A stretch of DNA of 64,000 nt from positions 256,225 through 320,224 of the forward strand of contig CBDBEG010000052.1 in the NCBI GenBank assembly GCA_965204255.1. Reading direction: 5' to 3'. The translations under genes and the position numbers were made by a program. This document shows positions 1,914-38,351 of this stretch, piece by piece (the first letter of the stretch is position 1; every line of letters starts with the position of its first letter). Under the pieces are notes generated by a model that was not told the origin of the DNA, did not search any database, and worked only from the letters and a program-made list of their open reading frames with translations. The stretch comes from Rubritalea sp. GTDB lineage: Bacteria; Verrucomicrobiota; Verrucomicrobiia; Verrucomicrobiales; Akkermansiaceae.

Positions 1914-2185
1914 TCTCATGCCCAGACCGAACTCTCCCACAAGAAAACACAGTCTTGTGATCCAAGTCAATTTCCTTGGGCTGGTGTATCTTGGGGAAAA
2001 GTTCAAAACATGTTGCGACACACCCACTCAAACACTGTTTAGATACCCAACTCAAGGTGCAAAGTTCATTGCTGCAAGTAAGGAAAGAGCTACAGAACAT
2101 TTAACAATTTCATTGGCCCAAGAAATTTGACTTTGTCCAACAGAATGGTTTCTTGCCGGGAGGCACATGTGGGCTGGGCATGAGA
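1914..2185. repeat. Degenerate inverted repeat (~70-bp arms, ~130-bp spacer) upstream of gene A
   Basis: The left arm is tctcatgcccagacc...caatttccttgggc (1914-1981). The right arm is gcccaagaaatttgac...gggctgggcatgaga (2116-2185). The 12 terminal bp match perfectly and overall identity is ~75 percent by eye. It recurs at the same offset in every unit, for example 11283-11554. Confidence 0.7.
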
Positions 2186-2449
2186 CGAGAGTAAAACGTA
2201 CCAGCTGAAAATCAAATTGAAAAGGAGCAGTTCTGTTTCAAAATTCATTCATAGTGAGAAGGGTTTTGACAATCTATAGGGAACCACCTAATATTCTATA
2301 GGGAGTCCTCTGAGATGTTAATTGTTCTATTCAGCATAATGATTCACACCTAACAAACTTCATAGATGATGTGCTCTGGATTCCATCATGAATGCAAAGT
2401 GAAGTTGAATCTCATCACTTCTATAAGTTCTAGCTTGACCAGTCAAGAG

Positions 2450-2457
2450 TATATAAA
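2450..2457 (+). promoter_or_regulatory. TATA box of gene A1
   Basis: TATATAAA lies 92 bp upstream of the ATG, at the same offset in A1-A5. Confidence 0.6.
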
Positions 2458-2541
2458 CCCCAAATCTCATGGTCCTCAGCATGGATTACCTTCATTCAAG
2501 GAACTTGAAGACAAACACTCACCTGTACTGCTGATGAAAAT

Positions 2542-3228
2542 ATGATAACCAACTGCTGCAGCATTGTTCTTGGAGTGTTCTTCCTGTTTGCCTGCTCTCT
2601 GCAATGCATTAGTGGCAGCACTTCTCCGGATTCATCCCTAGGAAATGTGGTCCTCTATTCTGTGACAAGAAGTACAAACCTGAATGTCACCCAGTCCATA
2701 AGTCTTGCCAACAACATCATGCAGGGTCTGAAACAAAAGGGAATAAGTGACAATGATTGCTGTGGGTGCAAGAAACGATCGGAAGACTACCTGATTCACC
2801 GATTCAAGACCGATTCACGAAACCCTGACTGCCTGCAAGTCAAGAAGATGCTTGAAGGTAACAATGCATCAGTCTTTGCCGTAACAGCTGACATTAGTTG
2901 TGTAAGGCCTACTTATGACTCTGAGTGCTTCCCAAGCAACAGCAAAGCCTCGTGTTCGTGGAGACAAAGTTTTGAGCCCATCCAGAATGCAAACAGTGAC
3001 ATTTTCCCCAAGTACGCTGTGAATACTGTGTGCAAGGGTTGCAATGAGTATGATTTTGCGTGCATGAATCAGCACAGGCAGTGCTACACCTACAAACAGG
3101 AAGTTGGATTTTATGTCCTGCAGAGAACAAACAGGTGCAGCAGTGATGGGTATGAAGAATGGGTGAGCACCTACACTCGACGGTACCTCAATGCGGCTTG
3201 CAGTTGCCAGTTCCTCCGCCGTGATTAG
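2542..3228 (+). CDS. Secreted Cys-rich protein, paralog A copy 1; IL-17-like cystine-knot C-terminal domain (inferred)
   Basis: Complete 228-aa ORF with signal peptide MITNCCSIVLGVFFLFACSLQCISG and sequons NVT and NAS. Motifs are ASCSW...DIFPKYAVNTVCKGC...AACSCQF. TATATAAA lies 92 bp upstream. Differences from A2 in the mature region are all synonymous (tcc/tct, aaa/aag, gtg/gta, aag/aaa, cag/caa). Confidence 0.8.
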   Translation: MITNCCSIVLGVFFLFACSLQCISGSTSPDSSLGNVVLYSVTRSTNLNVTQSISLANNIMQGLKQKGISDNDCCGCKKRSEDYLIHRFKTDSRNPDCLQVKKMLEGNNASVFAVTADISCVRPTYDSECFPSNSKASCSWRQSFEPIQNANSDIFPKYAVNTVCKGCNEYDFACMNQHRQCYTYKQEVGFYVLQRTNRCSSDGYEEWVSTYTRRYLNAACSCQFLRRD

Positions 3229-4065
3229 TAAAGTAGAATATCTGACCACAATAGTCAGTCATACCTGCAGACTCTAGTCTTTAGTATCATTTATAGCATA
3301 TAATTATCATGTATATAGTTGTAGCAGGTTACAGATCTTGATTGTACACATAGCTATCGTTTAAGAATATGAAATCATTTTGTTAAACAGTGAAGAAATG
3401 TGACCAATCACTTCGAGACGGTTATATGTTCTGTGCAGCAACATGTGACACACTAACAACCACTAGTCTAGCCAAGTTCTTGGAGACAAACACCTGCACT
3501 TCATAGAAAAGACCAAATGTATTCAAAGTTGTCTGAGACACTATAGCTAAGTTCAAATAATTTGCTGCAAATCAGTGCTAAGTTATAAGGTCTACTGATT
3601 TGCTCAACTCTTCATTTCCTCATAGCTACCTTTGACCATGCATTCCAGCTTTCTACAATCTAGTTGTACACATCAACTCATTGTGTGAAGAAAAGGTTGA
3701 AGCTAAATTATAGTCAGGCTCAATGTCTATTGGTGAATATTTTACGCACAATTTACTGGTACTATATCAGTTCTTACATTATGGAAGTTTCTAACGTAGT
3801 TGCGTTAAAAAACCTAGCTACTACTTGAAGAGCTGAATGCAAACCAGGACTCCCAAAGTGGGCTGATTAGTCTTCTGAACTGTCTTCATTCACACCATAC
3901 AAACAGGTAAGTAGCTGGTAGCTTGTGAACTAAGCTGTTAACTATCCCTGCTTCATGCAGGACAAGTATTTACATGCAAGCTGACTGTTTGCAACAGACA
4001 GCAGTACATAACAGTGCAACATATGAACATTACAGAACAATATTTTCGCAGATTAAAACTTATAG

Positions 4066-4166
4066 CAGTCGCGCACGTTTCGCACGAGATCACGTGACAT
4101 GAGCGGGACGAACATGGTCCGGGCACGTGCCCGGCCAGGCCCGGCCTTCGCTACGCCTGTTGCTGT
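4066..4166. repeat. CpG-rich palindromic element (short form) immediately upstream of locus D
   Basis: It contains atcacgtgac and the 12-bp palindrome gggcacgtgccc (4121-4132). It is present in U1-U4 and U6 and absent from U5 (42050-42100). Confidence 0.6.
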
Positions 4167-4221
4167 AATCAACTACTTTCATATGCATTTGAAATCTAAC
4201 ACTCACCTGTATTGATCAAAC

Positions 4222-4983
4222 ATGTCCACCTATAGCTACTGTACTGTTGTAGCTATTCTTCTTGGAGTCGACATTCTATTTGTCTGCTTTCTGCATTGCA
4301 GTATTTTCATCCCTAGGAAATGTTGTCCTCCATCCTATGATAAACTGAAAGTCTTGATGATGACATCGACATCCTGCAGGACATCAATCACAATGACATC
4401 CTTAAGAACATCAACATCCTCAAGCACTTAGGAAATGTGGTCCTCCACTCAGGTTGGGAGCGACATAACTGGAAATCTTGCAGTGACATCCTGCAGGACA
4501 TCAAAAAAACAAGGAAATGTTTTCCCCCCACATTATTCAGGTTGGGACATAACTGAAAGTCCTGACATTAACCTCTTGCAGGACATCAACCAAAAACCCA
4601 AAATATGGTCCCCACACCATTCAGGTTGCCCGGGGACATAACTGAAAGTCTTGACAATGACATCCTCAGCTGCAGGGCATCAAACCACAATGATATCCAC
4701 ATCCTACAAGACATCAACCGAAAGGCAAGGAAATATAGTCCTCCATTCAGGTTGGGACATAACTGAAAGTCCTACAGTGACATCCCACATGCAGGATATC
4801 AACCAAAAAGCAAGGAATATGGTCTTGACGATGACATCTTGCAGGCCCAACATCAACCAAAGTGACAGGAATCACAATACAAGGTTGATAGTAAATTTTG
4901 CGTGGTGTGGTGCAAGGTACATATTGCAGTTAGGATCTAGGGGGCCTGCTTCTCCCAGTGTTTATTGCACATATAGGAGCTAA
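4222..4983 (+). pseudogene. Locus D copy 1: gene A-derived 5' end plus amplified 82-129-bp repeat, no cystine-knot domain
   Basis: The 5' UTR and signal-peptide region aligns to gene A (aacactcacctgta..ATG..ttcttggagt..ctgcaatgca..tccctaggaaatgtggtcctc). The reading frame is broken into 3 ORFs. A 1-bp deletion relative to D2 (gataaactgaaag) changes the product. AATAAA is at 5024-5029. Confidence 0.45.
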
Positions 4984-5433
4984 TGTTAAAATGAAAGGTG
5001 TCTGTGCACATAGCTACCCCTGCAATAAATAATGTCACGTCCATTGCTTCATTTCATTGCCAGTGGCTAAATCTGGCAGCCCAGTTGGAAGGCATGCTTC
5101 AGTATGTAAAACTAATACTGGTGCAGTTTAAACAAGGTGTCAACGATGAACACGATTAACATCTGCTAGACTCTCTCTCTCACTTTTCCAGATGGTGAGA
5201 GATGGACTGGCTTGACATAGGCACTGGCTTGGTGTAGGTTCTGACATAGCGACCTTCCAGCTGCAGAGCAATCTCCCCCTAACTACCAAAACAGAGATGG
5301 CCATATCTGAACTGGGACTCACAGGTAATGGTTCTGGTCTGAATCAAGAAGACTTGAGAACATTCAACCCAAAGATGTAAGAAAAAACATTGCAACCCAA
5401 AATTTTAGGGCATGGTTGTCATTTATCTTTGTA

Positions 5434-5550
5434 TGCGCATGCGCAGTTCCAAAAATGGCCGTGAAAACTTGTCCGCTACCTAAGGTCAGGGTTCGACTAG
5501 TCTCGCGTAGCAATACTCTCGCCGACGTGAGTCTGGCTACGCGAGATTAG
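5434..5550. promoter_or_regulatory. Conserved CpG-rich block: TGCGCATGCGCA palindrome, CCAAAAATGG, 15-bp-stem hairpin
   Basis: tgcgcatgcgca is at 5434-5445 and also at 14809, 23385, 32753, 43679 and 56079. ccaaaaatgg is at 5449-5458. ctagtctcgcgtagc (5497-5511) pairs with gctacgcgagattag (5536-5550). Its function is unknown. Confidence 0.3.
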
Positions 5551-6003
5551 AGTTCGACACACCATGGTTCACACAGGTCAGTTGGGTAAGAATCCTGCAT
5601 GCAGTTATATCATTGCCGTGCATTGCCATGTAAAGTCTTGCATCAAAGCGTTGACCATCTAAAACACGTAGTCTTGTTGACGCCAATTAAGTTTCGCCAT
5701 GCAGATGAGTGAATTAACGCAGGGCAATTTTATTGAGGCTATATCTGTTAGGCTACAGAACTCGCTCCCCCACCCACGCAACTCGACCTCCCGGTCTCCA
5801 CCCCAGATTGAGAACGGAAAACAGTGTTCCGCTTTGCAATTCACTCGTTCTGGCGCAATATCATTTTTCACTTTCTACGACATTATGGGAGGAAGATCTG
5901 AATTCTATGAGAATATTCCCATGCAAACCTTACCGACTTTCCGACTCTGTCAAGCACTGCACCGCTATGCATACAGTGGTTAACGCAAGTCCGAGGCTCT
6001 AGC

Positions 6004-6011
6004 TATAAATA
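6004..6011 (+). promoter_or_regulatory. TATA box of gene B1
   Basis: TATAAATA lies 117 bp upstream of the ATG and is followed by the small palindrome ctgcatgatatgcag. Confidence 0.6.
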
Positions 6012-6120
6012 TCCTATATCTGCATGATATGCAGTCAAACCAACGAGCTACTCCAATCCCACCACCAGTTGTGTCAGAGAAAGAATTACATTACCAATAC
6101 TCTAAGTATCATCAACAGCA

Positions 6121-6777
6121 ATGTATCTAAAATCGTTTATCTTTCTCAGTTTGTGCGCATATTCTCTCATTTCAGCGAATCCAGTCTCTGTCAATTTGAG
6201 CAGCGGTGACACTACGGCGGAACGGCCGACCTCAATTACTGGACTATCAGGTGATCAACCGAAGCCGACCCACACCACGCATAAGCGGCAGGCAGGCGAC
6301 AGTAGTGTAAATTCGGGCGGCGGACCGGACAACCGTCCTGCAAGCGGTACTGCATTATTCAATGCCGTCCAGCTAAACCCTCTCTATGCTCTCTCGGAGA
6401 TGGCAGAACTTAAACATGCCGATGCTATCACTCGCCGCAAACGCCAGCAGACCGGCTCCAATGTAAACGTCATTATACCAAGACAGATTTGCAGTAGTGT
6501 ACTCAGCATTCTGAATGATGACTCCATTCATGTTGCATGCCCGTCTAGCGGACACAACAATGTGTGGTATCAATGCGAATACCAAGAAAATCGAAACCCG
6601 CGTTATTTGATACAGGCTACGAGTTGTCAAACTGATCGGTCATGCGGGAGTCAGTGTCCCACAAATGGACAATGCAGGGACCATAATGCTACTGTGACCA
6701 TTGCAGAACATACCGGAGACTTTACTTGGCGAAGAGTTTCCACTCAGATCAGACTAGGCTGCCAGTGCCGACTCTAG
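6121..6777 (+). CDS. Secreted preproprotein, paralog B copy 1; IL-17-like/neurotrophin-like cystine-knot domain after an RRKR site (inferred)
   Basis: 218-aa ORF with signal peptide MYLKSFIFLSLCAYSLISA and a Pro/Gly/Ser-rich pro-region. RRKR is at residues 105-108 (nt 6433-6444). The following 110-aa domain has 9 Cys and the motifs VWYQCEYQENRNPRYLIQATSC...LGCQCRL. TATAAATA lies 117 bp upstream. Confidence 0.8.
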   Translation: MYLKSFIFLSLCAYSLISANPVSVNLSSGDTTAERPTSITGLSGDQPKPTHTTHKRQAGDSSVNSGGGPDNRPASGTALFNAVQLNPLYALSEMAELKHADAITRRKRQQTGSNVNVIIPRQICSSVLSILNDDSIHVACPSSGHNNVWYQCEYQENRNPRYLIQATSCQTDRSCGSQCPTNGQCRDHNATVTIAEHTGDFTWRRVSTQIRLGCQCRL

Positions 6778-7898
6778 TAGCCAATGAGGTATCAAGTTAG
6801 ATGCTATAGCTAGGGTAGTTTTGAATTTTTATAGCAGGAAGAGAACAGAACTATAGCTGCGGCATTCACTCACTTTTAGATCTATAATTATGCTGTATTA
6901 CTGTGATTATATATACCTTGAACTATATCACTTATGGACGATGACTTTTATGCATGTTTGAAATATTGTTTAATCCGGACAATCATACAGTGGAATCCGA
7001 CACCCCTCAACAGCGGATACCCGCGATATAACGGGCAATTTTGACAGTCTTGACTGTCGCGCGCGCGGTCCCAATTGAACGCAAACAACGCCTAACGAAC
7101 CCAATTTGGCGGACACCTGTCGACCTTTTCATGAAGACTGTCCACCATCGTTGCTGTAGATAACAACTTGACGTTAGATTAGCGCTGTTATTCGTAGTAC
7201 TATAGCCTCTGCTTAGCCTTCCCTGCCAGTGTACAGCAAAGTACAGCTCTGGAAACGCAGCCCCGCGTTGTCACGCTCAACAGCCCGATTACACATACCA
7301 CGCCTACCGCTCGCTGTAATGAACAAAATGTTGGTTCCCAATGGTGTCCGTTATTGTCACTTCCGATAAATCTGACTGCGTGCTGTATTTCCGTTTTTAC
7401 CGCATATATATAGGCAAACTCCGAGACATTTATAGCTTTTTCACAGCGGTATCCGGCCTTAGTGGTCGCGCGCCGTATGGGAATACCAAGGAAGTTCTCT
7501 TTACAAGGTAACATACTGCACCTTGCATGGCCTAACGTAGTAAACACCTTTTCCTGTTCTGATACAATTTAATTTGCACTCCAAGTGGATAGAAAAATTA
7601 TGTAGTAAGGTCTGTGCATGACATTTAGGCTGATCTCCTCCATGCACATATGTGAGTTAATTAAAATGGTGAATTATATACGCACTGACGTTTGAAATAG
7701 CTCAGGATTGTGTTCAAAGTACTTCATTTGAACTTCCTATTAAATACAAGTAGCTATATAACCAAGACAGAAATCATGCGAACTATAAAACTATCTGTAT
7801 ATTGTCACTGCTATCTAATGGCAAACTTACAAGCTAATATATGACAACAATCTATATATAGCTACACTTCTCTCAATACTCCTTTCTAATGGTTGTAG

Positions 7899-8570
7899 CT
7901 ATGATCGGCTGTAGTAACTACATCCGACCACCAGTGTCTCCGTCACTGGTTCCCACGAGTCGAATCCACTTGAATCACACTGCCTTTGCCGCTTCAGAAC
8001 TTTAGCTGTGATGGAAACTGGCGACGAACTGCATGAACATTCACTGCATGCGACATTGACTACAAATCTTGGAAACACATCCTCCCCAAGGTCTTTAATA
8101 TTGTGACTCCAAGTGCACTTTTGTGCAGTATTTTGTGAAAAGCATTGTGAATCATATCGCAAACTTCCATACTCTGTGTTAGTTGTCAGCACACAAGCTG
8201 GAGGTGAGCTGAGATGTGAGTCCGGTAGTGGAACTCTGGTGAGATTAGATCCAGAGACATTGCAGTGTTGGTAATACCGGTCTAGGATGTATGACTCGTT
8301 TCGCTTCTTGCAGTTGTGGCACGGCCCCATCCCTGCTCCTGCCAAACCTCCAGCAATCATGTTAGCCATTGCAGCAGTGTTGATGTTTCCTGTCTGTTGG
8401 ATTGAGAGCCCAGCCACTGCTTGTGCTACAACAACAGAGATGCTGTTGTTGGTGACAGATGATCCTTGTGGTGTGGGCAGTGTGTAGGCTGTGTGCAGAT
8501 GAAATGCACACAGAGCTGCAATGATTAGCAGTTGCATGCTTGCTTGTGTGGTAAACATGATGTTTTTCAC
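7899..8570 (-). CDS. Secreted Cys-rich protein, paralog C copy 1; IL-17-like (inferred), related to A
   Basis: 223-aa ORF with hydrophobic N-terminus MQLLIIAALCAFHLHTAYT and sequons NNS, NES, NVS and NLT. It shares CxxCKKRxExY and DSxCF...CxW with gene A. Motifs are KCTWSHNIKDLGEDVFPRFVVNVACSEC...VVGCSYY. A TATA box lies ~105 bp upstream on the minus strand. Confidence 0.8.
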   Translation of the reverse strand: MKNIMFTTQASMQLLIIAALCAFHLHTAYTLPTPQGSSVTNNSISVVVAQAVAGLSIQQTGNINTAAMANMIAGGLAGAGMGPCHNCKKRNESYILDRYYQHCNVSGSNLTRVPLPDSHLSSPPACVLTTNTEYGSLRYDSQCFSQNTAQKCTWSHNIKDLGEDVFPRFVVNVACSECSCSSSPVSITAKVLKRQRQCDSSGFDSWEPVTETLVVGCSYYSRS

Positions 8571-8672
8571 TCAAGATAGCTTCGAGGCAGATTTGCGATA
8601 AAAGTCTTTATCATTCACGTGCTGTCTCTTGTTGTTGCTGCTAACTGATGACAGTGGTGTTTCCATTCTCTC

Positions 8673-8680
8673 TATAAATA
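8673..8680 (-). promoter_or_regulatory. TATA box of gene C1
   Basis: The plus strand reads tataaata, which is TATTTATA on the coding strand. It lies ~105 bp upstream of the ATG at 8570. Confidence 0.55.
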
Positions 8681-9805
8681 CTGGTGCTGAAGCAGGGATA
8701 GTGTACGACCCTGGTTCAGAGGGACTTGTTCAAGCTACTCATTCGTTTCATAATTCCTAAGGTGTGAATGGATCGAGGGAGTTGAAGAGACCTTCAGCAA
8801 TCAGTGATAGTTTCTCTTTGTCTTATGTAAGGGAATTGCTTACTGAAAGATGTTTTAGGGGTCTATATATTTCATTTTTCAACTCCCAATATGAACCATG
8901 AAGAAATCTTGCAAAATTTGTCCAGTTTCTGTGCCCTGTAAGGCATTCTTTCTTGTTTGTATTCAGCTGTCATGAAATAAGGCTTCACTGAACAATACAA
9001 TGCTATGCAGCCATTAAATATTCTTTCACCACTCTAAAGTATTTGTCATAGTAAACAATGTGGTGTATTCATGCAAGATTGAACGTGAAAGAGTGTTAGT
9101 AGTGCTTGCTCTTGGGGGCAAAGACGTTAAGAAACATTGAATGTATACATTGTGATGAGGTATGGAAGGACTGACAGGGGTGCACAGTTCTTATCACTGA
9201 CTCAATTATGCACTTTATTGTAGTGGCTGCATGATACTGGGCGGAGGTGTGGACATTTCATTTGAGATCTGTATAGCTATTGGTCACACTTGCAGAGAAG
9301 TTCTGGACTTAAATTAATGTTGAGCTAATACTTTAGCAGTTGATGTATTCAGTGTATGTGTATAATGCACGTTCACATATTTCTGCAAAATTTTTGTACT
9401 TATAGTTATATTGCATTCACCATGGTATATTCTCCAAATTTTTTTTGGGATATAGCTACAATGTAACTGTGGAATATAGAGCATATATATGGTATGTACA
9501 CTTGCTTCCAGTCTCACCCATTTAAAAAACCAATTTCTGTGCATATAGCTGTTCTCAGGTCTCCAAAGTTTCACTTACATGAGATATCAATACATTTTCA
9601 GTGCATGTGATGTTCACTGCAAATCACTGCCTAGAAGTAGTATATGATTAATCACTCAGAACCATACTGGTCTAACCTAAAATCAAGTATTGGAAATTGC
9701 ATGATGCAATAAAAACTTACATACCCTATGAGCATAAGACTAAAATTTGAAATTTTAACATTTTCAGCAGCTCCTGAAACACCTTTTGAGAGTATTCCCA
9801 TGTTA

Positions 9806-9828
9806 GGGGGGGGGGGGGGGGGGGGGGG
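9806..9828 (+). repeat. Poly-G tract, G23 (U2)
   Basis: Same flanks as in U1. The length was counted directly. Confidence 0.9.
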
Positions 9829-11818
9829 CTAACTCAACATTTGTGGGTTAGACCACTCTGGTTCTCAACCCTTCATATTATCTTCTGCCTTTAGAGTCTA
9901 ATAACTATAAATAGTACAGTAAAACCTCTAATAGCTAACAGACCCTCCGAGAAGCGGACAACCTCTCTACAGTGGATGGCTCACTTGCCCCCGATTGATT
10001 TTACCATAGAACTAATACATTTCGAACCTCCGAGAAGCGGACACCTCTCAACTCCGAACAACGGACACTGATCAGTCCCCAACGTACCTTGGCCAATACA
10101 AAATTACCTCCGAAAACGGACAGTGAAGCTACACCCACATAATGCTGATGCTTAATCACTGTCATATCTTCTGCCTTTAGAGTCTAAGTAGTATAGGCAT
10201 GTAGCTAGTGTAATGAGCGTGTGGCATGGTTGAGTTCACACACTATAGGTATTAGGTATTGGGGTGGTACTGACTTACAGTGTATAATATAGGAGAATGT
10301 AGAATATTGCAGAGGCAAGGGGTGCTGAAGCACCTGTTGTGGGGCGAGCAATAAGGGCAATATTGCTTGGCTAGCTAAAGCTACATCAGTGCATAGTTCC
10401 AGATCTGATAGGCCATGCATATAGCTGACAGGAATTGTCATTCCTTATAGCCACAAGAATGACTGAAGCCTGTCAACTAATGAGTTATGGATTCACCAGG
10501 AAACCCTCCATTTCATTCCATAGCTATACATACTTTAAAAGCGAAACAGTTAACAATGGTTAGGTATCAACACATTTTCATCATTCACATTCAGGAAGTC
10601 AACAGGCACATATCCTACTAAATATTAATTCTACTACCAAGTAAGGCTTGCATGGGTATTTTCAGTCAAACTGGGAAGAACAACTGCTTCTTGTATATGA
10701 AGTTGAAAACAATGAAAGGGACCACATGTTTATGGACGCTTGTAAGTAATTACGTTATATACATGATATACATGCACACAATTTTGCCTTTAGTATCTCT
10801 TTAATAAAGCCATCAAGTGCAAAAGTTGCACTGAACTACAAGTTTGGTCACAATTGATTAAACCTGTCTGTATAGGTCTCTCTCTGATTGTAGCCCATAA
10901 AGCTTTATATGTGTACAGTACCTCAAGTAGTGACTGCAGTGCTACTCAGCTTAATTTTCATTTATGTTCAAGTTAATTTTTTGGTATTTTTTCTGGTTGT
11001 CTGAGAATTAGCTAATGACTAGCTATGTTGAAAGCCTTTATACACTTGATTGATGGAATAACTGATCGACTGCCAAGTTAACATGTAAATGATGAAAAGT
11101 CATGCTTATTGCAAATCAACAATGTGTTTATCATGATTGTCTCTATAATCTCTTCATTAGCTTCATAGTTACTGCTGGCAGCAAGTAGAGGGTGTATGTA
11201 TGCATATATGCATGCTGATTAGTTGTATGCCTATATTCAATGTACTATGCTGATTAGTTGTGGCTTCATTGACTAAAACTAGTCTCATGCCCAGACCGAA
11301 CTCTCCCACAAGAAAACACAGTCTTGTGATCCAAGTCAATTTCCCTGGGCTGGTGTAACTTGGGGAAAAGTTCAAAACATGTTGCGACACACCCACTCAA
11401 ACACTGTTTGGATACCCAACTCAAGGTGCAAAGTTCATTGCTGCAAGTAAGGAAAGAGCTACAGAACATTTAACAATTTCATTGGGCCAAGAAATTTGAC
11501 TTTGTCCAACAGAATGGTTTCTTGCCGGGAGGCACATGTGGGCTGGGCATGAGATGAGAGTAAAACATACCAGCTGAAAATCAAATTGAAAAGGAGCAGT
11601 TCTGTTTCAAAATTCATTCATAGTGAGAAGGGTTTTGACAATCTATAGGGAACCACCTAATATTCTATAGGGAGTCCTCTGAGATGTTAATTGTTCTATT
11701 CAGCATAATGATTCACACCTAACAAACTTCATAGATGATGTGCTCTGGATTCCATCATGAATGCAAAGTGAAGTTGAATCTCATCACTTCTATAAGTTCT
11801 AGCTTGACCAGTCAAGAG

Positions 11819-16420: not shown

Positions 16421-17216
<796 letters not shown>

Positions 17217-17494
17217 TGTTGGATTGAGAGCCCAGCCACTGCTTGTGCTACAACAACAGAGATGCTGTTGTTGGTGACAGATGATCCTTGTGGTGTGGGC
17301 AGTGTGTAGGCTGTGTGCAGATGAAATGCACACAGAGCTGCAATGATTAGCAGTTGCATGCTTGCTTGTGAGGTAAACATGATGTTTTTCACTCAAGATA
17401 GCTTTGAGGCAGATTTGCGATAGAACTCTTTATCATTCACGTCCTGTCTCTTGTTGTTGCTGCTAACTGATGACAGTGGTGTTTCCATGCTCTC

Positions 17495-18592: not shown

Positions 18593-20397
18593 CTAACTCA
18601 ACATTTGTGGGTTAGACCACTCTGGTTCTCAACCCTTCATATTATCTTCTGCCTTTAGAGTCTAATAACTATAAATAGTACAGTAAAACCTCTAATAGCT
18701 AACAGACCCTCCGAGAAGCGGACAACCTCTCTACAGTGGACGGCTCACTTGCCCCCGATTGATTTTACCATAGAACTAATACATTTCGAACCTCCGAGAA
18801 GCGGACACCTCTCAACTCCGAACAACGGACACTGATCAGTCCCCAACGTACCTTGGCCAATACAAAATTACCTCCGAAAACGGACAGTGAAGCTACACCC
18901 ACATAATGCTGATGCTTAATCACTGTCATATCTTCTGCCTTTAGAGTCTAAGTAGTATAGGCATGTAGCTAGTGTAATGAGTGTGTGGCATGGTTGAGTT
19001 CACACACTATAGGTATTAGGTATTGGGGTGGTACTGACTTACAGTGTATAATATAGGAGAATGTAGAATATTGCAGAGGCAAGGGGTGCTGAAGCACCTG
19101 TTGTGGGGTGAGCAATAAGGGCAATATTGCTTGGCTAGCTAAAGCTACATCAGTGCATAGTTCCAGATCTGATAGGCCATGCATATAGCTGGCAGGAATT
19201 GTCATTCCTTATAGCCACAAGAATGACTGAAGCCTGTCAACTAATGAGTTATGGATTCGCCAGGAAACCCTCCATTTCATTCCATAGCTATACATACTTT
19301 AAAAGCGAAACAGTTAACAATGGCTAGGTATCAACACATTTTCATCATTCACATTCAGGAATTTTGCCTTTAGTATCTCTTTAATAAAGCCATCAAGTGC
19401 AAAAGTTGCACTGAACTACAAGTTTGGTCACAATTGATTAAACCTGTCTGTATAGGTCTCTCTCTGATTGTAGCCCATAAAGCTTTATATGTGTACAGTA
19501 CCTCAAGTAGTGACTGCAGTGCTACTCAGCTTAATTTTCATTTATGTTCAAGTTAATTTTTTGGTATTTTTTCTGGTTGTCTGAGAATTAGCTAATGACT
19601 AGCTATGTTGAAAGCCTTTATACACTTGATTGATGGAATAACTGATCGACTGCCAAGTTAACATGTAAATGATGAGAAGTCATGCTTATTGCAAATCAAC
19701 AATGTGTTTATCATGATTGTCTCTATAATCTCTTCATTAGCTTGATAGTTACTGATGGCAGCAAGTAGAGGGTGTATGTATGCATATATGCATGCTGATT
19801 AGTTGTATGCCTATATTCAATGTACTTTGCTGATTAGTTGTGGCTTCATTGACTAAAACTAGTCTCATGCCCAGACCGAACTCTCCCACAAGAAAACACA
19901 GTCTTGTGATCCAAGTCAATTTCCCTGGGCTGGTGTAACTTGGGGAAAGTTCAAAACATGTTGCGACACACCCACTCAAACACTGTTTGGATACCCAACT
20001 CAAGGTGCAAAGTTCATTGCTGCATGTAAGGAAAGAGCTACAGAACATTTAACAATTTCATTGGCACAAGAAATTTGACTTTGTCCAACAGAATGGTTTC
20101 TTGCCGGGAGGCACATGTGGGCTGGGCATGAGATGAGAGTAAAACGTACCAGCTGAAAATCAAATTGAAAAGGAGCAGTTCTGTTTCAAAATTCATTCAT
20201 AGTGAGAAGGGTTTTGACAATCTATAGGGAACCACCTAATATTCTATAGGGAGTCCTCTGAGATGTTAATTGTTCTATTCAGCATAATGATTCACACCTA
20301 ACAAACTTCATAGATGATGTGCTCTGGATTCAATCATGAATGCAAAGTGAAGTTGAATCTCATCACTTCTATAAGTTCTAGCTTGACCAGTCAAGAG

Positions 20398-20405
20398 TAT
20401 ATAAA
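20398..20405 (+). promoter_or_regulatory. TATA box of gene A3
   Basis: TATATAAA lies 92 bp upstream of the ATG. Confidence 0.6.
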
Positions 20406-20489
20406 CCCCAAATCTCATGGTCCTCAGCATCGATTACCTTCGTTCAAGGAACTTGAAGACAAGCACTAATCTGTACTGCTGATGAAAAT

Positions 20490-21176
20490 ATGACAAACAA
20501 CTACTGCAGCATTGTTCTTGGAGTGTTCTTCCTGTTTGCCTGCTCTCTGCAATGCATTAGTGGCAGCACTTCTCCGGATTCATCCCTAGGAAATGTGGTC
20601 CTCTATTCTGTGACAAGAAGTACAAACCTGAATGTCACCCAGTCCATAAGTCTTGCCAACAACATCATGCAGGGTCTGAAACAAAAGGGAATAAGTGACA
20701 ATGATTGCTGTGGGTGCAAGAAGCGATCGGAAGACTACCTGATTCACCGATTCAAGACCGATTCACGAAACCCTGACTGCCTGCAAGTCAAGAAGATGCT
20801 TGAAGGTAACAATGCATCAGTCTTTGCCGTAACAGCAGACATTAGTTGTGTAAGGCCTACCTATGACTCTGAGTGCTTCCCAAGCAACAGCAAAGCCTCG
20901 TGTTCGTGGAGACAAAGTTTTGAGCCCATCCAGAATGCAAACAGTGACATTTTCCCCAAGTACGCTGTGAATACTGTATGCAAAGGTTGCAATGAGTATG
21001 ATTTTGCATGCATGAATCAGCACAGGCAGTGCTACACCTACAAACACGAAGTTGGATTTTACGTCCTGCAGAGAACAAACAGGTGCAGCAGTGATGGGTA
21101 TGAAGAATGGGTGAGCACCTACACTCGACGGTACCTCAATGCGGCTTGCAGTTGCCAGTTCCTCCGCCGTGATTAG
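20490..21176 (+). CDS. Paralog A copy 3 (IL-17-like, inferred)
   Basis: 228-aa ORF. It differs from A2 by C5Y in the signal peptide and by Q to H in YTYK(Q/H)EV. Confidence 0.8.
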   Translation: MTNNYCSIVLGVFFLFACSLQCISGSTSPDSSLGNVVLYSVTRSTNLNVTQSISLANNIMQGLKQKGISDNDCCGCKKRSEDYLIHRFKTDSRNPDCLQVKKMLEGNNASVFAVTADISCVRPTYDSECFPSNSKASCSWRQSFEPIQNANSDIFPKYAVNTVCKGCNEYDFACMNQHRQCYTYKHEVGFYVLQRTNRCSSDGYEEWVSTYTRRYLNAACSCQFLRRD

Positions 21177-22170
21177 TAAAGTAGAATATCTGACCACAAT
21201 AGTCAGTCATACCTGCAGACTCTAGTCTTTAGTATCATTTATAGCATATAATTATCATGTATATAGTTGTAGCAGGTTATTGATCTTGATTGTACACATA
21301 GCTATCGTTTAAGAATATGAAATCATTTTGTTAAACAGTGAAGAAATGTGACCAATCACTTCGAGACGGTTATATGTTCTGTGCAGCAACATGTGACACA
21401 CTAACAACCACTAGTCTAGCCATGTTCTTGGAGACAAACACCTGCACTTCATAGAAAAGACCAAATGTATTCAAAGTTGTCTGAGACACTATAGCTAAGT
21501 TCAAATAATTTGCTGCAAATCAGTGCTAAGTTATAAGGTCTACTGATTTGCTCAACTCTTCATTTCCTCATAGCTACCTTTGACCATGCAGTCCAGCTTT
21601 CTACAATCTAGTTGTACACATCAACTCATTGTGTGAAGAAAAGGTTGAAGCTAAATTATAGTCAGGCTCAATGTCTATTGGTGAATAATTTACGCACAAT
21701 TTACTGGTACTATATCAGTTCTTACATTATGGAAGTTTCTAACGTAGTTGCGTTAAAAAAACTTAGCTACTACTTGAAGAGCTGAATGCAAACCAGGACT
21801 CCCAAAGTGGGCTGATTAGTCTTCTGAACTCTCTTCATTCACACCATACAAACAGATAAGTAGCTGGTAGCTTGTGAACTAAGCTGTTAACTATCCCTGC
21901 TTCATGCAGGACAAGTATTTACATGCAAGCTGACTGTTTGCAACAGACAGCAGTACATAACAGTGCAACATATGAACATTACAGAACAATATTTTCGCAG
22001 ATTAAAACTTATAGCAGTCGCGCACGTTTCGCACGAGATCACGTGACACGAGCGGGACGAACATGATCCGGGCACGTGCCCGGCCAGGCCCGGCCTTCGC
22101 TACGCCTGTTGCTGTAATCAACTACTTTCATATGCATTCGAAATCTAACACTCACCTGTATTGATCAAAC

Positions 22171-22927
22171 ATGTCCACCTATAGCTACTGTACTGTTGTA
22201 GCTATTCTTCTTGGAGTCGACATTCTATTTGTCTGCTTTCTGCATTGCAGTATTTTCATCCCTAGGAAATGTTGTCCTCCATCCTATGATAAAACTGAAA
22301 GTCTTGATGATGACATCGACATCCTGCAGGACATCAATCACAATGACATCCTTAAGAACATCAACATCCTCAAGCACTTAGGAAATGTGGTCCTCCACTC
22401 AGGTTGGGAGCGACATAACTGGAAATCTTGCAGTGACATCCTGCAGGACATCAAAAAAACAAGGAAATGTTTTCTCCCCACATCATTCAGGTTGGGACAT
22501 AACTGAAAGTCCTGACATTGACCTCTTGCAGGACATCAACCAAAAACCCAAAATATGCTCCCCACACCATTCAGGTTGCCCGGGGATATAACTGAAAGTC
22601 TTGACAATGACATCCTCAGCTGCAGGGCATCAAACCACAATGATATCCACATCCTACAAGACATCAACCGAAAAGCAAGGAAATATAGTCCTCCATTCAG
22701 GTTGGGACATAACTGAAAGTCCTACAGTGACATCCCACATGCAGGATATCAACCAAAAAGCAAGGAATGTGGTCTTGACGATGACATCTTGCAGGACCAC
22801 CGTCAACCAAAGTGACAGGAATCACAATACAAGGTTGATAGTAAATTTTGCGTGGTGTGGTGCAAGGTACATATTGCAGTTAGGATCTAGGGGGGCCTGC
22901 TTCTCCCAGTTTTTATTGCACATATAG
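22171..22927 (+). pseudogene. Locus D copy 3
   Basis: Same structure as D2. Confidence 0.45.
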
Positions 22928-23947
22928 GAGCTAATGTTAAAATTAAAGGTATCTGTGCGCACAGCTACCCCTGCAATAAATAACGTCACGTCCATTGCTT
23001 CATTTCATTGCCAGTGGCTAAATCTGGCAGCCCAGTTGGAAGGCATGCTTCAGTATGTAAAACTAATACTGGTGCAGTTTAAACAAGGTGTCAATGATGA
23101 ACACGATTAACATCTGCTAGACTCTCTCTCTCACTTTTCCAGATGGTGAGAGATGGACTGGCTTGACATAGGCACTGGCTTGGCGTAGGTTCTGACATAG
23201 CGACCTTCCAGCTGCAGAGCAATCTCCCCCTAACTACCAAAACAGAGATGGCCATATCTGAACTGGGACTCACAGGTAATGGTTCTGGTCTGAATCTAGA
23301 AGACTTGAGAACATTCAACCCAAAGATGTAAGAAAAAACATTGCAACCCAAAATTTTAGGGCATGGTTGTCATTTATCTTTGTATGCGCATGCGCAGTTC
23401 CAAAAATGGCCGTGAAAACTTGTCCGCTACCTAAGGTCAGGGTTCGACTAGTCTCGCGTAGCCATACTCTCGCCGACGTGAGTCTGGCTACGCGAGATTA
23501 GAGTTCGACACACCATGGTTCACACAGGTCAGTTGGGTAAGAATCCTGCATGCAGTTATATCATTGTCGTGCATTGCCATGTAAAGTCTTGCATCAAAGC
23601 GTTGACCATCTAAAACACGTAGTCTTGTTGACGCCAAGTTTCGCCCAGATGAGTGAATTAACGCAGGGCAATTTTATTGAGGCTATATCTGTTAGGCTAC
23701 AGAACTCGCTCCCCCACCCACGCAACTCGACCTCCCGGTCTCGACCCCAGACTGAGAACGGAAAACAGTGTTCCGCTTTGCAATTCACTCGTTCTGGCGC
23801 AATATCATTTTTCACTTTCTACGACATTATGGGAGGAAGATCTGAATTGTATGAGAATATTCCCATGCAAACCTTACCGACTTTCCGACTCTGTCAAGCA
23901 CTGCACCGCTATGCATACAGTGGTTAACGCAAGTCCGAGGCTCTAGC

Positions 23948-23955
23948 TATAAATA
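23948..23955 (+). promoter_or_regulatory. TATA box of gene B3
   Basis: TATAAATA lies 117 bp upstream of the ATG. Confidence 0.6.
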
Positions 23956-24064
23956 TCCTATATCTGCATGATATGGAGTCAAACCAACGAGCTACTCCAT
24001 TCTCACCACCAGTTGTGTCAGAGAAAGAATTACATTACCATTACTCTAAGTATCATCAACGGCA

Positions 24065-24718
24065 ATGTATCTAAAGTCGTTTATCTTTCTTTTGTGCGCA
24101 TATTCTCTTATTTCAGCGAAGCCAGTCTCTGTCAATTTGAGCAGCGGTGACACTACGGCGGAACGGCCGACCTCAATTACTGGACTATCAGGTGATCAAC
24201 CGAAGCCGACCCACACCACGCATAAGCGGCAGGCAGGCGACAGTAGTGTAAATTCGGGCGGCGGATCGGACAACCGCCCTGCAAGCGGTACTGCATTATT
24301 CAATGCCGTCCAGCAAAACCCTCTCTATGCTCTCTCGGAGATGGCAGAGCTTAAACATGCTGATGCTATCTCACGCCGCAAACGCCAGCAGACCGGCTCC
24401 AACGCAAACCTCATTATACCAAGACAGATTTGCAGTAATGTACTCAGCATTCTGAATGATGACTCCATTCATGTTGCATGCCCGTCTAGCGGACACAACA
24501 ATGTGTGGTATCAATGCGAATATCAAGAAAATCGAAACCCGCGTTATTTGATACAGGCTACGAGTTGTCAAACGGATCGGTCATGCGGGAGTCAGTGTCC
24601 TACAAATGGACAGTGCAGAGACCGTAATGCTACTGTGACCATTGCAGAACATACCGGAGACTTTACTTGGCGAAGAGTTTCCACTCAGATCAGACTAGGC
24701 TGCCAGTGCCGACTCTAG
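24065..24718 (+). CDS. Paralog B copy 3
   Basis: 217-aa ORF, near-identical to B2 (V to G in LSS(V/G)D; NANLII). Confidence 0.8.
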   Translation: MYLKSFIFLLCAYSLISAKPVSVNLSSGDTTAERPTSITGLSGDQPKPTHTTHKRQAGDSSVNSGGGSDNRPASGTALFNAVQQNPLYALSEMAELKHADAISRRKRQQTGSNANLIIPRQICSNVLSILNDDSIHVACPSSGHNNVWYQCEYQENRNPRYLIQATSCQTDRSCGSQCPTNGQCRDRNATVTIAEHTGDFTWRRVSTQIRLGCQCRL

Positions 24719-25843
24719 TAGCCAATGAGGTATCAAGTTAGATGCTATAGCTAGGGTAGTTTTGAATTTTAATAGCAGGAAGAGAACTGAACTATAGCTG
24801 CGGCATTCACTCACTTTTAGATCTATAATTATGCTGTATTACTGTGATATTATATATACCTTGAACTATATCACTTATGAACGATGACTTTTAATTGATT
24901 ATGCATGTTTGAAATATTGTTTAATCCGGACAATCATACAGTGGAATCCGACACCCCTCAACAGCGGATACCCGCGATATAACGGGCAATTTTGACATTC
25001 TTGACTGTCGCGCGGTCCCAATTGAACGCAAACAACGCCTAACGAACCCAATTTGGCGGACACCTGTCGACCTTTTCATGAAGACTGTCCACCATCGTTG
25101 CTGTAGATAACAACTTGACGTTAGATTAGCGCTGTTATTCGTAGTACTATAGCCTCTGCTTAGCCTTCCCTGCCAGTGTACAGCAAAGTACAGCTCTGGA
25201 AACGCAGCCCCGCGTTGTCACGCTCAACAGCTCGATTACACATACCACGCCTACCGCTCGCTGTAATGAACAAAATGTTGGTTCCCAATGGTGTCCGTTA
25301 TTGTCACTTCCGATAAATCTGACTGCGTGCTGTATTTCCGTTTTTACCGCATATATATAGGCAAACTCCGAGACATTTATAGCTTTTTTCATAGCGATAT
25401 CCGGCCTTAGTGGTCGCGCGCCGTATGGGAATACCAAGGAAGTTCTCTTTACAAGGTAACATACTGCACCTTGCATGGCCTAACATAGTAAACACCTTTT
25501 CCTGTTCTGATACAATTTAATTTGCACTCCAAGTGGATAGAAAATTATGTAGTAAGGTCTGTGCATGACATTTAGGCTGATCTCCTGCATGCACATATGT
25601 GAGTTAATTAAAATGGTGAATTATATACGCACTGACGTTGGAAATAGCCCAGGATTGTGTTCAAAGTTCTTCATTTTAACTTCCTATTAAATACAAGTAG
25701 CTATACAACCAAGACAGAAATCATGTGAACTATAAAACTATCTGTATATTGTCACTGCTATCTAATGGCAAACTTACAAGCTAATATATGACAACAATCT
25801 ATATATAGCTACACTTCTCAATACTCCTTTCTAATGGTTATAG

Positions 25844-26515
25844 CTATGATCGGCTGTAGTAACTACATCCAACCACCAGTGTCTCCGTCACTGGTTCCCA
25901 CGAGTCGAATCCACTTGAATCACACTGCCTTTGCCGCTTCAGAACTTTAGCTGTGATGGAAACTGGCGACGAACTGCATGAACATTCACTGCATGCGACA
26001 TTGACTACAAATCTTGGAAACACATCCTCCCCGAGGTCTTTAATATTGTGACTCCAAGTGCACTTTTGTGCAGCATTTTGTGAAAAGCATTGTGAATCAT
26101 ATCGCAAACTTCCATACTCTGTGTTAGTTGTCAGCACACAAGCTGGAGGTGAGCTGAGATGTGAGTCCGGTAGTGGAACTCTGGTGAGATTAGATCCAGA
26201 GACATTGCAGTGTTGGTAATACCGGTCTAGGATGTATGACTCGTTTCGCTTCTTGCAGTTGTGGCACGGCCCCATCCCTGCTCCTGCCAAACCTCCAGCA
26301 ATCATGTTAGCCATTGCAGCGGTGTTGATGTTTCCTGTCTGTTGGATCGAGAGCCCACCCACTGCTTGTGCTACAACAACAGAGATGCTGTTGTTGGTGA
26401 CAGATGATCCTTGTGGTGTGGGCAGTGTGTAGGCTGTGTGCAGATGAAATGCACACAGAGCTGCAATGATTAGCAGTTGCATGCTTGCTTGTGAGGTAAA
26501 CATGATGTTTTTCAC
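25844..26515 (-). CDS. Paralog C copy 3
   Basis: 223-aa intact ORF with variants AVGGLS and QNAAQKC. Confidence 0.8.
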   Translation of the reverse strand: MKNIMFTSQASMQLLIIAALCAFHLHTAYTLPTPQGSSVTNNSISVVVAQAVGGLSIQQTGNINTAAMANMIAGGLAGAGMGPCHNCKKRNESYILDRYYQHCNVSGSNLTRVPLPDSHLSSPPACVLTTNTEYGSLRYDSQCFSQNAAQKCTWSHNIKDLGEDVFPRFVVNVACSECSCSSSPVSITAKVLKRQRQCDSSGFDSWEPVTETLVVGCSYYSRS

Positions 26516-26617
26516 TCAAGATAGCTTCGAGGCAGATTTGCAATAAAAGTCTTTATCATTCACGTGCTGTCTCTTGTTGTTGCTGCTAACTGATGACAGT
26601 GGTGTTTCCATTCTCTC

Positions 26618-26625
26618 TATAAATA
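26618..26625 (-). promoter_or_regulatory. TATA box of gene C3
   Basis: Same motif and offset as C1. Confidence 0.55.
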
Positions 26626-27754
26626 CTGGTGCTGAAGCAGGGATAGTGTACGACCCTGGTTCAGAGGGACTTGTTCAAGCTACTCATTCGTTTCATAATT
26701 CATAAGGTGTGAATGGATCGAGGGAGTTGAAGAGACCTTCAGCAATCAGTGATAGTTTCTCTTTGTCTTATGTAAGGGAATTGCTTACTGAAAGATGTTT
26801 TAGGGGTCTATATTATTTCATTTTTCAACTCCCAATATGAACCATGAAGAAATCTTGCAAAATTTGTCCAGTTTCTGTGCCCAGTAGGGCATTCTTTCTT
26901 GTTTGTATTCAGCTGTCATGAAATAAGGCTTCACTGAACAATACAATGCTATGCAGCCATTAAATATTCTTTCACCACTCTAAAGTATTTGTCATAGTAA
27001 ACAATGTGTTGTATTCATGCAAGATTGAACATGAAAGAGTGTTAGTAGTGCTTGCTCTTGGGGGCAAAGACATTAAGAAACATTGAATGTATACATTGTG
27101 ATGAGGTATGAAAGGACTGACAGGGGTGCACAGTTCTTATCACTGACTCAATTATGCACTTTATTGTAGTGGCTGCATGATACTGGGCGGAGGTGTGGAC
27201 ATTTCATTTGAGATTTGTATAGCTATTGGTCACACTTGCAGAGAAGTTCTGGACTTAAATTAATGTTGAGCTAATACTTTAGCAGTTGATGTATTCAGTG
27301 TATGTGTATAATGCACGTTCACATATTTCTGCAAAAATTTTGTACTTATAGTTATATTGCATTCACCATGGTATATTCTCCAAATTTTTTTGGGATATAG
27401 CTACAATGTAACTGTGGAATATAGAGCATATATATGGTATGTACACTTGCTTCCAGTCTCACCCATTTAAAAAAACAATTTCTGTGCATATAGCTGTTCT
27501 CAGGTCTCCAAAGTTTCACTTACATGAGATATCAATACATTTTCACTCAGTGCATGTGATGTTCACTGCAAATCACTGCCTAGAAGTAGTATATGATTAA
27601 TCACTCAGAACCACACTGGTCTAACCTAAAATCAAGTATTGGAAATTGCATGATGCAATAAAAACTTACATACCCTATGAGCATAAGACTAAAATTTGAA
27701 ATTTTAACATTTTCAGCAGCTCCTGAAACACCTATTGAGAGTATTCCCATGTTA

Positions 27755-27777
27755 GGGGGGGGGGGGGGGGGGGGGGG
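27755..27777 (+). repeat. Poly-G tract, G23 (U4)
   Basis: Same flanks as in U1. Confidence 0.9.
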
Positions 27778-29767: not shown

Positions 29768-29775
29768 TATATAAA
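29768..29775 (+). promoter_or_regulatory. TATA box of gene A4
   Basis: TATATAAA lies 92 bp upstream of the ATG. Confidence 0.6.
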
Positions 29776-29859
29776 CCCCAAATCTCATGGTCCTCAGCAT
29801 GGATTACCTTCATTCAAAGAACTTGAAGACAAACACTCATCTGTACTGCCAATGAAAAT

Positions 29860-33315: not shown

Positions 33316-33323
33316 TATAAATA
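33316..33323 (+). promoter_or_regulatory. TATA box of gene B4
   Basis: TATAAATA lies 117 bp upstream of the ATG. Confidence 0.6.
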
Positions 33324-33432
33324 TCCTATATCTGCATGATATGCAGTCAAACCAACGAGCTACTCCATTCTCACCACCAGTTGTGTCAGAGAAAGAATTA
33401 CATTACCATTACTCTAAGTATCATCAACGGCA

Positions 33433-38249: not shown

Positions 38250-38351
38250 TCAAGATAGCTTTGAGGCAAATTTGCGGTAAAACTCTTTATCATTCACGTC
38301 CTGTCTCTTGCTGTTGCTGCTAACTGATGACAGTGGTGTTTCCATTCTCTC

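Follow-up and report, generated by a model that had tools for sequence, protein, structure and literature searches.

Introduction

Cytokines of the interleukin-17 (IL-17) type play a central part in mucosal immunity. How they arose is debated: surveys date their origin to the base of the Eumetazoa and find none in sponges, where Chen et al. (2024) and Saco et al. reported the family to be absent (PMC11087794, PMC8353272). Their genes are known to form tandem repeats, of the same or of different isoforms, in mussel, scallop, octopus, sea urchin and acorn worm (PMC8353272), and the IL17-1 subfamily of the sea urchin consists of 11 almost identical genes whose induction takes place within 2 h of exposure to bacteria (PMC5457136). 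Here we describe a stretch of 64,000 nucleotides (contig CBDBEG010000052.1, positions 256,225 to 320,224 of the forward strand, assembly GCA_965204255.1, deposited as Rubritalea sp.; hereafter the window) that is filled by a long tandem array of a cassette of three genes, A, B and C, each of which probably encodes a secreted cystine-knot ligand of the IL-17/PTTH/Trunk clade.

IL-17s are extremely divergent, and those of invertebrates mostly carry either a full six-cysteine knot (T1A) or a knot without cysteines 3 and 6 (T1C) (PMC11087794); in invertebrate members CPW replaces the SPW motif (PMC11087794, PMC8353272, PMC5457136). The hormones PTTH and CFSH group with IL-17, with Trunk as the closest outgroup, and CFSH is an IL-17-domain hormone that binds IL-17 receptors (PMC11087794). 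Cystine-knot neurotrophins have been traced to Porifera, and FN3 kinases together with these knots predate the IL-17 pathway (PMC11087794).

A tandem array of three-gene cassettes

Self-BLASTN of the first unit (2001-11369, taken as reference) against the whole window revealed units of about 9.4 kb that start at positions 2001, 11370, 19949, 29319, 40232, 51628 and 63584. Identity to unit 1 is 97.5-98.2% in units 2-4 and, in blocks only, 84-97% in units 5-7. The array runs past both ends of the window, and the cassette is present in at least 6 copies. The full units (no strand assigned; boundaries from self-BLASTN) are:

2001..11369: repeat unit 1, reference, about 9.37 kb, with A1, B1 and C1
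11370..19948: repeat unit 2, 98.1% identical to unit 1; A and B intact, C disrupted; foreign sequence replaces unit-1 positions 7051-8395
19949..29318: repeat unit 3, 98.2% identical over 9388 bp; A, B and C complete
29319..40231: repeat unit 4; A, B and C intact; 2.36-kb retroelement insertion at about 34900-37258, with an RVT_1 open reading frame (ORF) at 35532-36923
40232..51627: repeat unit 5; A, B and C intact; 2.55-kb insertion at about 44254-46805 with a 60-bp minisatellite
51628..63583: repeat unit 6; A and B intact; C remnant; reverse transcriptase ORF of a long interspersed nuclear element (LINE) inserted

Each unit carries A and B on the plus strand and C, convergent with them, on the minus strand, an arrangement that a first-pass annotation made from the letters alone had described and that the ORF map bears out. 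The same annotation regarded the triad as fixed. This is true of A and B, which are intact in all six full units, but not of C, which is intact in units 1, 3, 4 and 5, broken in unit 2 and truncated to a remnant in unit 6. Intact ORFs are thus found in 16 of the 18 gene copies, as follows (coordinates from the ORF listing unless stated otherwise):

2542..3228, plus strand: gene A copy 1, 228 residues
11911..12597, plus strand: gene A copy 2
20490..21176, plus strand: gene A copy 3
29860..30546, plus strand: gene A copy 4
40755..41444, plus strand: gene A copy 5, 229 residues, about 92% amino acid identity to copy 1
52186..52875, plus strand: gene A copy 6, 229 residues, about 88% amino acid identity to copy 1
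6121..6777, plus strand: gene B copy 1, 218 residues
15489..16142, plus strand: gene B copy 2
24065..24718, plus strand: gene B copy 3
33433..34089, plus strand: gene B copy 4
46923..47576, plus strand: gene B copy 5
57186..57839, plus strand: gene B copy 6
7899..8558, minus strand: gene C copy 1, 219 residues from the ATG at 8558, convergent with B (ORF listing and starts of homologues)
25844..26503, minus strand: gene C of unit 3
37578..38237, minus strand: gene C of unit 4
48706..49365, minus strand: gene C of unit 5
16529..17392, minus strand: disrupted C of unit 2, a pseudogene whose N-terminal 58 codons are in frame with a retroelement-derived ORF (translation and BLASTN breakpoints)
about 59159..59386, minus strand: C remnant of unit 6, the C-terminal 76 codons only (L009 coordinates 11974-12201 plus 47185)

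The start of gene C is most likely the ATG at 8558 (MFTTQ...) rather than the listed GTG at 8570 (ORF 7899-8570), because homologues elsewhere begin in this way. TATA-like elements precede the first two genes at nearly constant distances:

2450..2455, plus strand: TATA-like element of gene A, 92 nucleotides 5' of the start codon (at -92 or -93 in 6 of 6 copies)
6004..6009, plus strand: TATA-like element of gene B, 117 nucleotides 5' of the start codon (at -117 in five copies, at -110 in copy 6)

A, B and C are single-exon (intronless) genes, and A and B at least have a TATA-type promoter of their own. As for 3' ends, AATAAA or ATTAAA does not occur within 600 nucleotides downstream of the stop codon of any A or B copy; in C, such a signal lies at about +304 to +328.

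Comparison of the copies with each other gave ratios of non-synonymous to synonymous differences (pN/pS) of 0.05-0.47 in all pairs but one, the exception being a C pair with a value of 0.62 (six substitutions). The excess of synonymous over non-synonymous differences shows that the copies are under purifying selection, and therefore that A, B and C are real genes.

Protein features and kinship of A, B and C

All three proteins begin with a signal-peptide-like hydrophobic stretch (maximal Kyte-Doolittle 12-mer 2.3-2.7), carry N-x-S/T sequons (two in A, two in B and four in C) and have a Cys-rich C-terminal half, in agreement with the features first noticed in them. Protein A combines an N-terminal helical segment, CxxCKKRSEDYLI, with a six-Cys knot, CSW ... 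FPKY ... VCKGC ... QCY ... ACSC. Protein B is built differently: its signal peptide is followed by a low-complexity pro-region, an RRKR furin-type site (residues 105-108) and a knot of about 110 residues with the motifs ACP..VWYQCEYQENRNPRYLIQATSC ... GCQCRL, which in the IL-17 register read CP..VWY, RNPRYLIQATSC and GCQC. An R-x-K-R site stands before the knot in all B relatives (RRKR in 9 of 11, RGKR in 2 of 11). The KKR of A and C comes after invariant cysteines, where the consensus of the wider family is CKP, with no conserved cleavage site.

The motifs quoted in the first-pass annotation are all present; C lacks the last Cys of the C-x-C motif. All intact C copies end in ...VVGCSYY, and homologues in related genomes end in GCSCY or GCGCY; one knot Cys, the sixth, has therefore been lost in gene C. 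Divergent B-type proteins end in GCQHK, also without the sixth Cys.

The three proteins had also been taken for paralogs of one another. For A and C this is correct (BLASTP, 25% identity, E 5e-12): they align over their full length, their cysteines are invariant, and both carry the motifs CxxCKK..YL, YDSxCF, C(S/T)W, D(I/V)FP(K/R)(Y/F), VL(K/Q)R and G.(E/D)xW. B, on the other hand, shows no pairwise similarity to A or C. We did not call it a paralog of these, since direct hhalign comparison was insignificant with small profiles (0.6%) and weak, yet in register, with a larger A/C-family profile (26%).

Profile comparisons point to IL-17-type proteins

Word-indexed searches retrieved only close relatives, in metagenome-derived assemblies. 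A HMMER profile of the mature regions of A and C was then compared with 1.84 billion representative proteins, and at E <= 0.001 it gave 67 matches, mostly proteins of 190-290 residues that were aligned over the whole domain. The A/C subfamily amounts to about 60 clusters at 50% identity in public data and is lineage-restricted. Two of the proteins found, P0205 and P0207 (with E-values of 1.4e-4 and 3.6e-4 in the search of 1.84e9 proteins), are genuine IL-17-domain proteins: they score 56.6 and 54.1 bits with Pfam IL17 (cutoff 24) and 53 and 46 bits with a profile built from the six human IL-17s. Their motifs, ICPWR...DRFPRY..EAKCTC..C...GCMP...VPVL...ACIC, are accompanied by an N-terminal C(K/R)..(E/D)(Y/F)L helix and an EC..DG(Y/F)..W motif that A and C have as well. 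Against a 60-member family profile built without them, P0205 and P0207 score 48.6 and 44.6 bits.

Profile-profile comparison by hhalign gave the same picture. The human IL-17, Noggin and PTTH references used here were confirmed by Pfam or PDB. Against a target of six human and two invertebrate IL-17s the A/C family reached 97% (E 9e-11, 141 columns), and against the two invertebrate IL-17s alone 98.2% (E 2.8e-14, 150 columns); a profile of only A and C gave 95.4% and 97.6% with the same two targets (E 1.9e-8 and 4.6e-12, 137 and 144 columns). These A/C alignments take in the N-terminal helix. The B knot reached 93% against the combined target (E 3.3e-7, 77 columns) and 52-54% against the human IL-17s alone (E about 1.4e-4, 68 columns), and its best HMMER reference scores were with IL-17D and IL-17F. 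The register of the knot is kept throughout, including C(S/P)W, (R/F)P(K/R)(Y/F), the first knot Cys pair, a Cys where vertebrates have Ser, and the C-x-C at the end; A has all six knot cysteines and C all but the sixth.

Control comparisons remained low. With the A/C and B profiles, neurotrophins gave 0.3-0.7%, PDGF/VEGF 0.3-2.4% and Spaetzle 0.1-3.7% (with unverified reference sequences), so that the neurotrophins (NGF) and Spaetzle, two of the other families that had been proposed for checking, did not exceed 3.7%. For B in particular, neurotrophins, PDGF, Spaetzle, Noggin and PTTH fell within 0.3-6%. Across 60 column-shuffled alignments the maximum was 17% for B and 2.9% for A+C, and reversed sequences gave 0.1-0.2%. 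A search for B relatives in JGI metagenome contigs yielded one match of 21 residues, which is probably spurious. Taken as sequence comparisons, these results support A, B and C as secreted cystine-knot ligands whose best-supported relatives are IL-17-type proteins.

Probable placement within the IL-17/PTTH/Trunk clade

The 60-member A/C profile had a single significant match in PDB, Bombyx PTTH from its complex with Torso (5aoq_L, E 7.5e-4, 91 residues), and hhalign aligned the A/C family with PTTH at 88.9%. The two have in common the motif I(K/E)DLGE(D/N)x(F/V)PRF ... (I/V)LKR ... ACxC. B showed no similarity to PTTH (1.4%). Some members of the A/C family match both the IL17 and the Noggin models of Pfam, and Bombyx PTTH itself gives a sub-threshold Noggin match, like the family members. 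With human Noggin, hhalign gave the A/C family 16-35% over 28-29 columns, around the motif WSQ(S/T)F.P(I/V)...DLG..FWPRYV..C; positions 1-85 of the Noggin model (of 211) were never matched by the family, and no member reached its cutoff of 24.1 bits.

Since A/C are about as clearly related to PTTH, with Noggin matches near threshold, they are better described as members of the broader IL-17/PTTH/Trunk clade than as canonical IL-17s. The assignment to the IL-17 family made in the first-pass annotation is therefore upheld as profile homology (A/C 95-98%, B 93%) but not as canonical membership. Within the clade, where Trunk comes in through the published grouping, A and C appear to lie closest to IL-17-domain proteins of invertebrates. 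The cysteines of A follow the T1A pattern, and the divergent B-types (GCQHK) and the C of this genome (GCSYY) would, without their sixth Cys, fit T1C. B is probably a divergent IL-17-like pro-protein, more canonical in appearance than A and C.

Related arrays and the probable host

The same kinds of genes are found in other contigs, in several arrangements. In another assembly (L001), whose proteins are about 80% identical, the order A(+), B(+), C(-), A(+) repeats about every 10.5 kb. On L002, a more distant contig, a B-type gene with 52% identity to B comes after an A/C-type gene; in L010, A and C alternate without B, in L011 a C-like and an A-like gene stand head to head, and in L012 two B types are direct neighbours. 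The unit immediately upstream of the window contains a B variant of 236 residues with 77% identity.

L010 1789-11842; L011 8590-10639; L012 221-4205; L002 2582-5258; L007 1227-1931: related arrays and upstream B variant

The triad is thus a property of this array and its close relatives and not of the family, and the linkage of A/C-type with B-type genes recurs. That these genes are repeatedly linked in differently built arrays suggests co-regulation or cooperation.

Two neighbouring ORFs were seen in these contigs. A single-ORF TRIM-like gene of 721 residues (RING, B-box, Filamin and a faint NHL) occupies L011 678-2843, about 6 kb from the A/C-type pair, on a contig of 365 kb from another assembly. 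At L001 312-890 the array is flanked by a 192-codon ORF of low complexity, (ERKK)n, probably a gene-calling artefact on a microsatellite.

Regarding the host, the contig that holds the window is 2.3 Mb long, has 37x coverage and belongs to an ENA metagenome assembly. A 2.5-kb scaffold of sample PANK22-1_SAMN12291266_METAG is 98.3% identical to the window, in coding and non-coding sequence, and one B-type protein is identical in five further PANK22-1 samples. The PANK22-1 label probably stands for the sponge holobiont study of Pankey et al. 2022. That group has also released 57 metagenomes of Caribbean sponges (Agelas, Amphimedon, Aplysina, Niphates and Xestospongia) under PRJNA555077 (PMC9723761). 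We take the array to be part of an animal genome; high coverage, megabase contigs and recurrence across samples make it fairly likely that this animal is the (Caribbean) sponge host rather than an associated animal.

Insertions in the array

The units differ in length because of insertions, which differ from unit to unit and are therefore younger than the amplification. The insert of unit 4 is a LINE fragment with its RVT_1 ORF at 35532-36923, and that of unit 6 holds an RVT_1 ORF at 60627-62594 (minus strand). As fragments of non-long-terminal-repeat retroelements with RVT_1 domains, these extend over 35158-36923 (minus strand) and 60627-62594 (minus strand), respectively; in unit 2 a related C-terminal retroelement fragment is joined to the start of gene C (16529-17392, minus strand). 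The minisatellite of unit 5, inside the 2.55-kb insertion, consists of 21 copies of 60 bp with 95% matches (44583-45845) and encodes a 517-codon ORF (44524-46077, minus strand) of 20-residue repeats (VVCPLVIPRGLPEEDLSVL...). A 236-codon ORF without a Pfam match (46093-46803) adjoins it. Rfam and tRNA scans of the 64-kb window found no RNA genes.

Evidence against the assignment and rival explanations

Several results weigh against reading the three genes as ligands of the IL-17/PTTH/Trunk clade. None of A, B and C is an IL-17 at the Pfam threshold: all three remain under the gathering score of the IL17 model (PF06083, 24 bits), so that this check, proposed at first pass, turned out negative. 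Scanned alone, A and B had no Pfam match at E <= 10, and C matched only Noggin (E 0.062, 13.6 bits). Scans of single relatives gave sub-threshold IL17 matches for 3 of 19 A/C-type proteins (best 0.02) and for 1 of 11 B-type proteins (0.13), and the best IL17 E-values were 0.002-0.02 among members of the A/C family and 0.13 for the B type. The Noggin model, in turn, came just under its threshold in 14 of 62 family members, the best at 23.8 and 23.2 bits. No profile matched a vertebrate IL-17 chain in PDB at E <= 10, and PDB sequence searches with B (as a single sequence, as an alignment and as the trimmed knot) and with the A/C alignment returned no knot proteins; matches of B to immunoglobulin light chains in PDB (E 0.03-0.6) were taken as chance. 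Gene C, having lost its sixth Cys and with two of six copies dead, may moreover be degenerating here.

Structure prediction was equivocal. The AlphaFold2 model of A (19-sequence alignment; predicted local distance difference test, pLDDT, 77.5; predicted template modelling score, pTM, 0.64) shows a cystine-knot fold. The top of the Foldseek list obtained from PDB with this model consists almost entirely of cystine-knot cytokines, with IL-17F first (6hg9_A, E 0.016, prob 0.97), followed by PDGF-B, Noggin (1m4u_A, third, prob 0.91), IL-17F, AMH, Spaetzle and IL-17A (prob 0.90). Nothing reached E <= 0.001, and PDGF, Noggin, AMH and Spaetzle scored alike, so that this comparison, also suggested at first pass, did not give a significant hit. 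As modelled, A appears clearly to be of the cystine-knot cytokine fold class, its sub-family not being settled by Foldseek. The model of B has four long strands in the C-terminal domain and a pLDDT of 41, which is unreliable; the Foldseek list obtained with it was discarded as noise, and because of this poor model the assignment of B rests on profile comparison only.

The PTTH match raises the question whether A and C, rather than being immune cytokines, are hormones of the Trunk/PTTH type with a neurotrophic or developmental role and a receptor tyrosine kinase resembling Torso as their receptor, with only B, if anything, being IL-17-like. The sole significant PDB match of the family profile, the 88.9% hhalign value, the DLGE...PRF ... 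LKR ... ACxC motif and the Noggin match that PTTH and the family both give below threshold speak for this explanation, and knot neurotrophins and FN3 kinases have been reported in sponges as older than the IL-17 pathway (PMC11087794). Yet with the family profile P0205 and P0207 reach about twice the score of PTTH (48.6 and 44.6 versus 24.3 bits), the IL-17 alignments include the N-terminal helix while the PTTH alignment does not, and near-identical multi-copy arrays are typical of IL-17, whereas Trunk is treated as one conserved ancient ligand for which no expansions are reported (PMC11087794). We consider this explanation rather unlikely. That A and C are Noggin-like secreted antagonists of bone morphogenetic proteins seems to us very improbable. 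The 13.6 bits of C, the 14 of 62 members with up to 23.8 bits (cutoff 24.1), the hhalign values of 16-35% and the third place of 1m4u_A (prob 0.91) speak for it; however, no member is at threshold, the hhalign match covers only 28-29 columns and leaves the N-terminal region of Noggin unmatched, and the IL-17 comparisons span the whole domain at much higher probability.

Two further explanations concern the role of the array rather than the kinship of its products. The knot might be a scaffold for proteins that do not signal, for example defensive toxins, antimicrobials or effectors aimed at symbionts, and the array would then reflect an arms race and not cytokine dosage. The high copy number, the lineage-restricted and fast-diverging family and the probable sponge host with its dense microbial symbionts (PMC9723761) would agree with this, but all pN/pS values are below 1, no diversifying pattern is seen among the near-identical copies and the conserved residues are those of the ligand families; we regard this role as improbable. 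Finally, the array could be non-functional amplified DNA, that is, pseudogenes or transposable-element cargo, considering the retroelement insertions in units 2, 4, 5 and 6, the two dead C copies and the absence of a canonical polyadenylation signal within 600 nucleotides downstream of A or B. With 16 of 18 ORFs intact, pN/pS of 0.05-0.47 in all pairs but one, genes and gene order kept at about 80% protein identity in another genome and identical proteins in several independent samples, such an explanation is hardly credible. We retain, as the probable explanation, an array of secreted ligands of the IL-17/PTTH/Trunk clade.

Proposed function and implications

If the genes encode such ligands, furin-type cleavage of B at RRKR would free a knot of about 110 residues with the IL-17B/D-like motif R(Y/N)PRYLxxAxxC, and mature A, B and C would be expected to dimerise like other cystine-knot cytokines. 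They might signal via receptors with paired FN3 ectodomains, either IL-17R-like SEFIR receptors or Torso-like kinases. Amplification of the whole cassette would raise the dose of all three ligands jointly and may allow rapid and strong co-expression, a dosage model to which the sea urchin offers a parallel in its tandem, near-identical IL17-1 genes, switched on within hours of exposure to bacteria. By this analogy an immune role of A, B and C is plausible. A further reading is that their products act jointly in signalling, either immune or between host and symbionts, whether by forming heteromers or by being secreted together; the cassette lends itself to asking whether different knot ligands are co-regulated or heteromeric.

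More tentatively, the genome may be that of a demosponge, and sponges may possess ligands of the IL-17/PTTH/Trunk clade in massively amplified form, among them a B-type protein with the canonical IL-17B/D motif RYPRYL; we view this combined claim as possible but doubtful. If true, it would move the origin of IL-17-type ligands to before the split between sponges and eumetazoans, contradicting their reported absence from Porifera (PMC11087794, PMC8353272). With a sponge as host, A, B and C would be candidates for an ancestral IL-17/Trunk-like ligand system in an animal with dense microbial symbioses. More generally, standard domain models miss whole, highly amplified subfamilies that bridge IL-17, PTTH and Noggin-like sequences.

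Comparison with known systems

The cystine-knot C-terminus of A and C recalls Noggin (PF05806), as does the local motif WSQxFxP...DLGxxFWPRYVxxxxC; unlike a true Noggin relative, however, they match it only over about 30-130 knot residues, and the Noggin N-terminal region has no match. The likeness to PTTH is more extensive, as the A/C profile matches the whole PTTH knot, with DLGE..(F/V)PRF, LKR and AC-x-C in common, and as B, like PTTH, would be cut from a pro-form (cleavage of B being predicted from its R-x-K-R site). Unlike PTTH, A and C lack a conserved cleavage site, and nothing in the PTTH alignment corresponds to their N-terminal segment. The CFSH pro-hormone, with a signal peptide, a pro-peptide, a dibasic site and an IL-17-like knot, resembles gene B, but CFSH is an arthropod neurohormone and is not known to be arrayed. 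PTTH has been described as insect-specific, with no tandem expansion reported (PMC11087794).

It is the invertebrate IL-17s (PF06083) that the three proteins resemble in most respects. They, too, are secreted, of roughly 200-250 residues and with a C-terminal cystine knot, and their motifs follow the same order: C-x-W, (R/F)P(R/K)(Y/F), a hydrophobic stretch with C, a Cys at the vertebrate-Ser position and C-x-C. The N-terminal CK...(D/E)(Y/F)L helix is also present in P0205 and P0207. Differences lie in the extra cysteines and inserted loop of A and C, in the long pro-region and furin-type site of B, and in a host that is probably a sponge, where IL-17 is reported absent. At the level of the locus, near-identical tandem copies in which isoforms may be mixed are common to both, although here the amplified unit is a fixed three-gene cassette instead of a single gene. 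The first-pass annotation considered such an organisation unusual for an immune-ligand locus, which does not hold given that mixed tandem IL-17 arrays are known (PMC8353272). The organisation is a variant of these arrays, and A, B and C are previously unannotated members.

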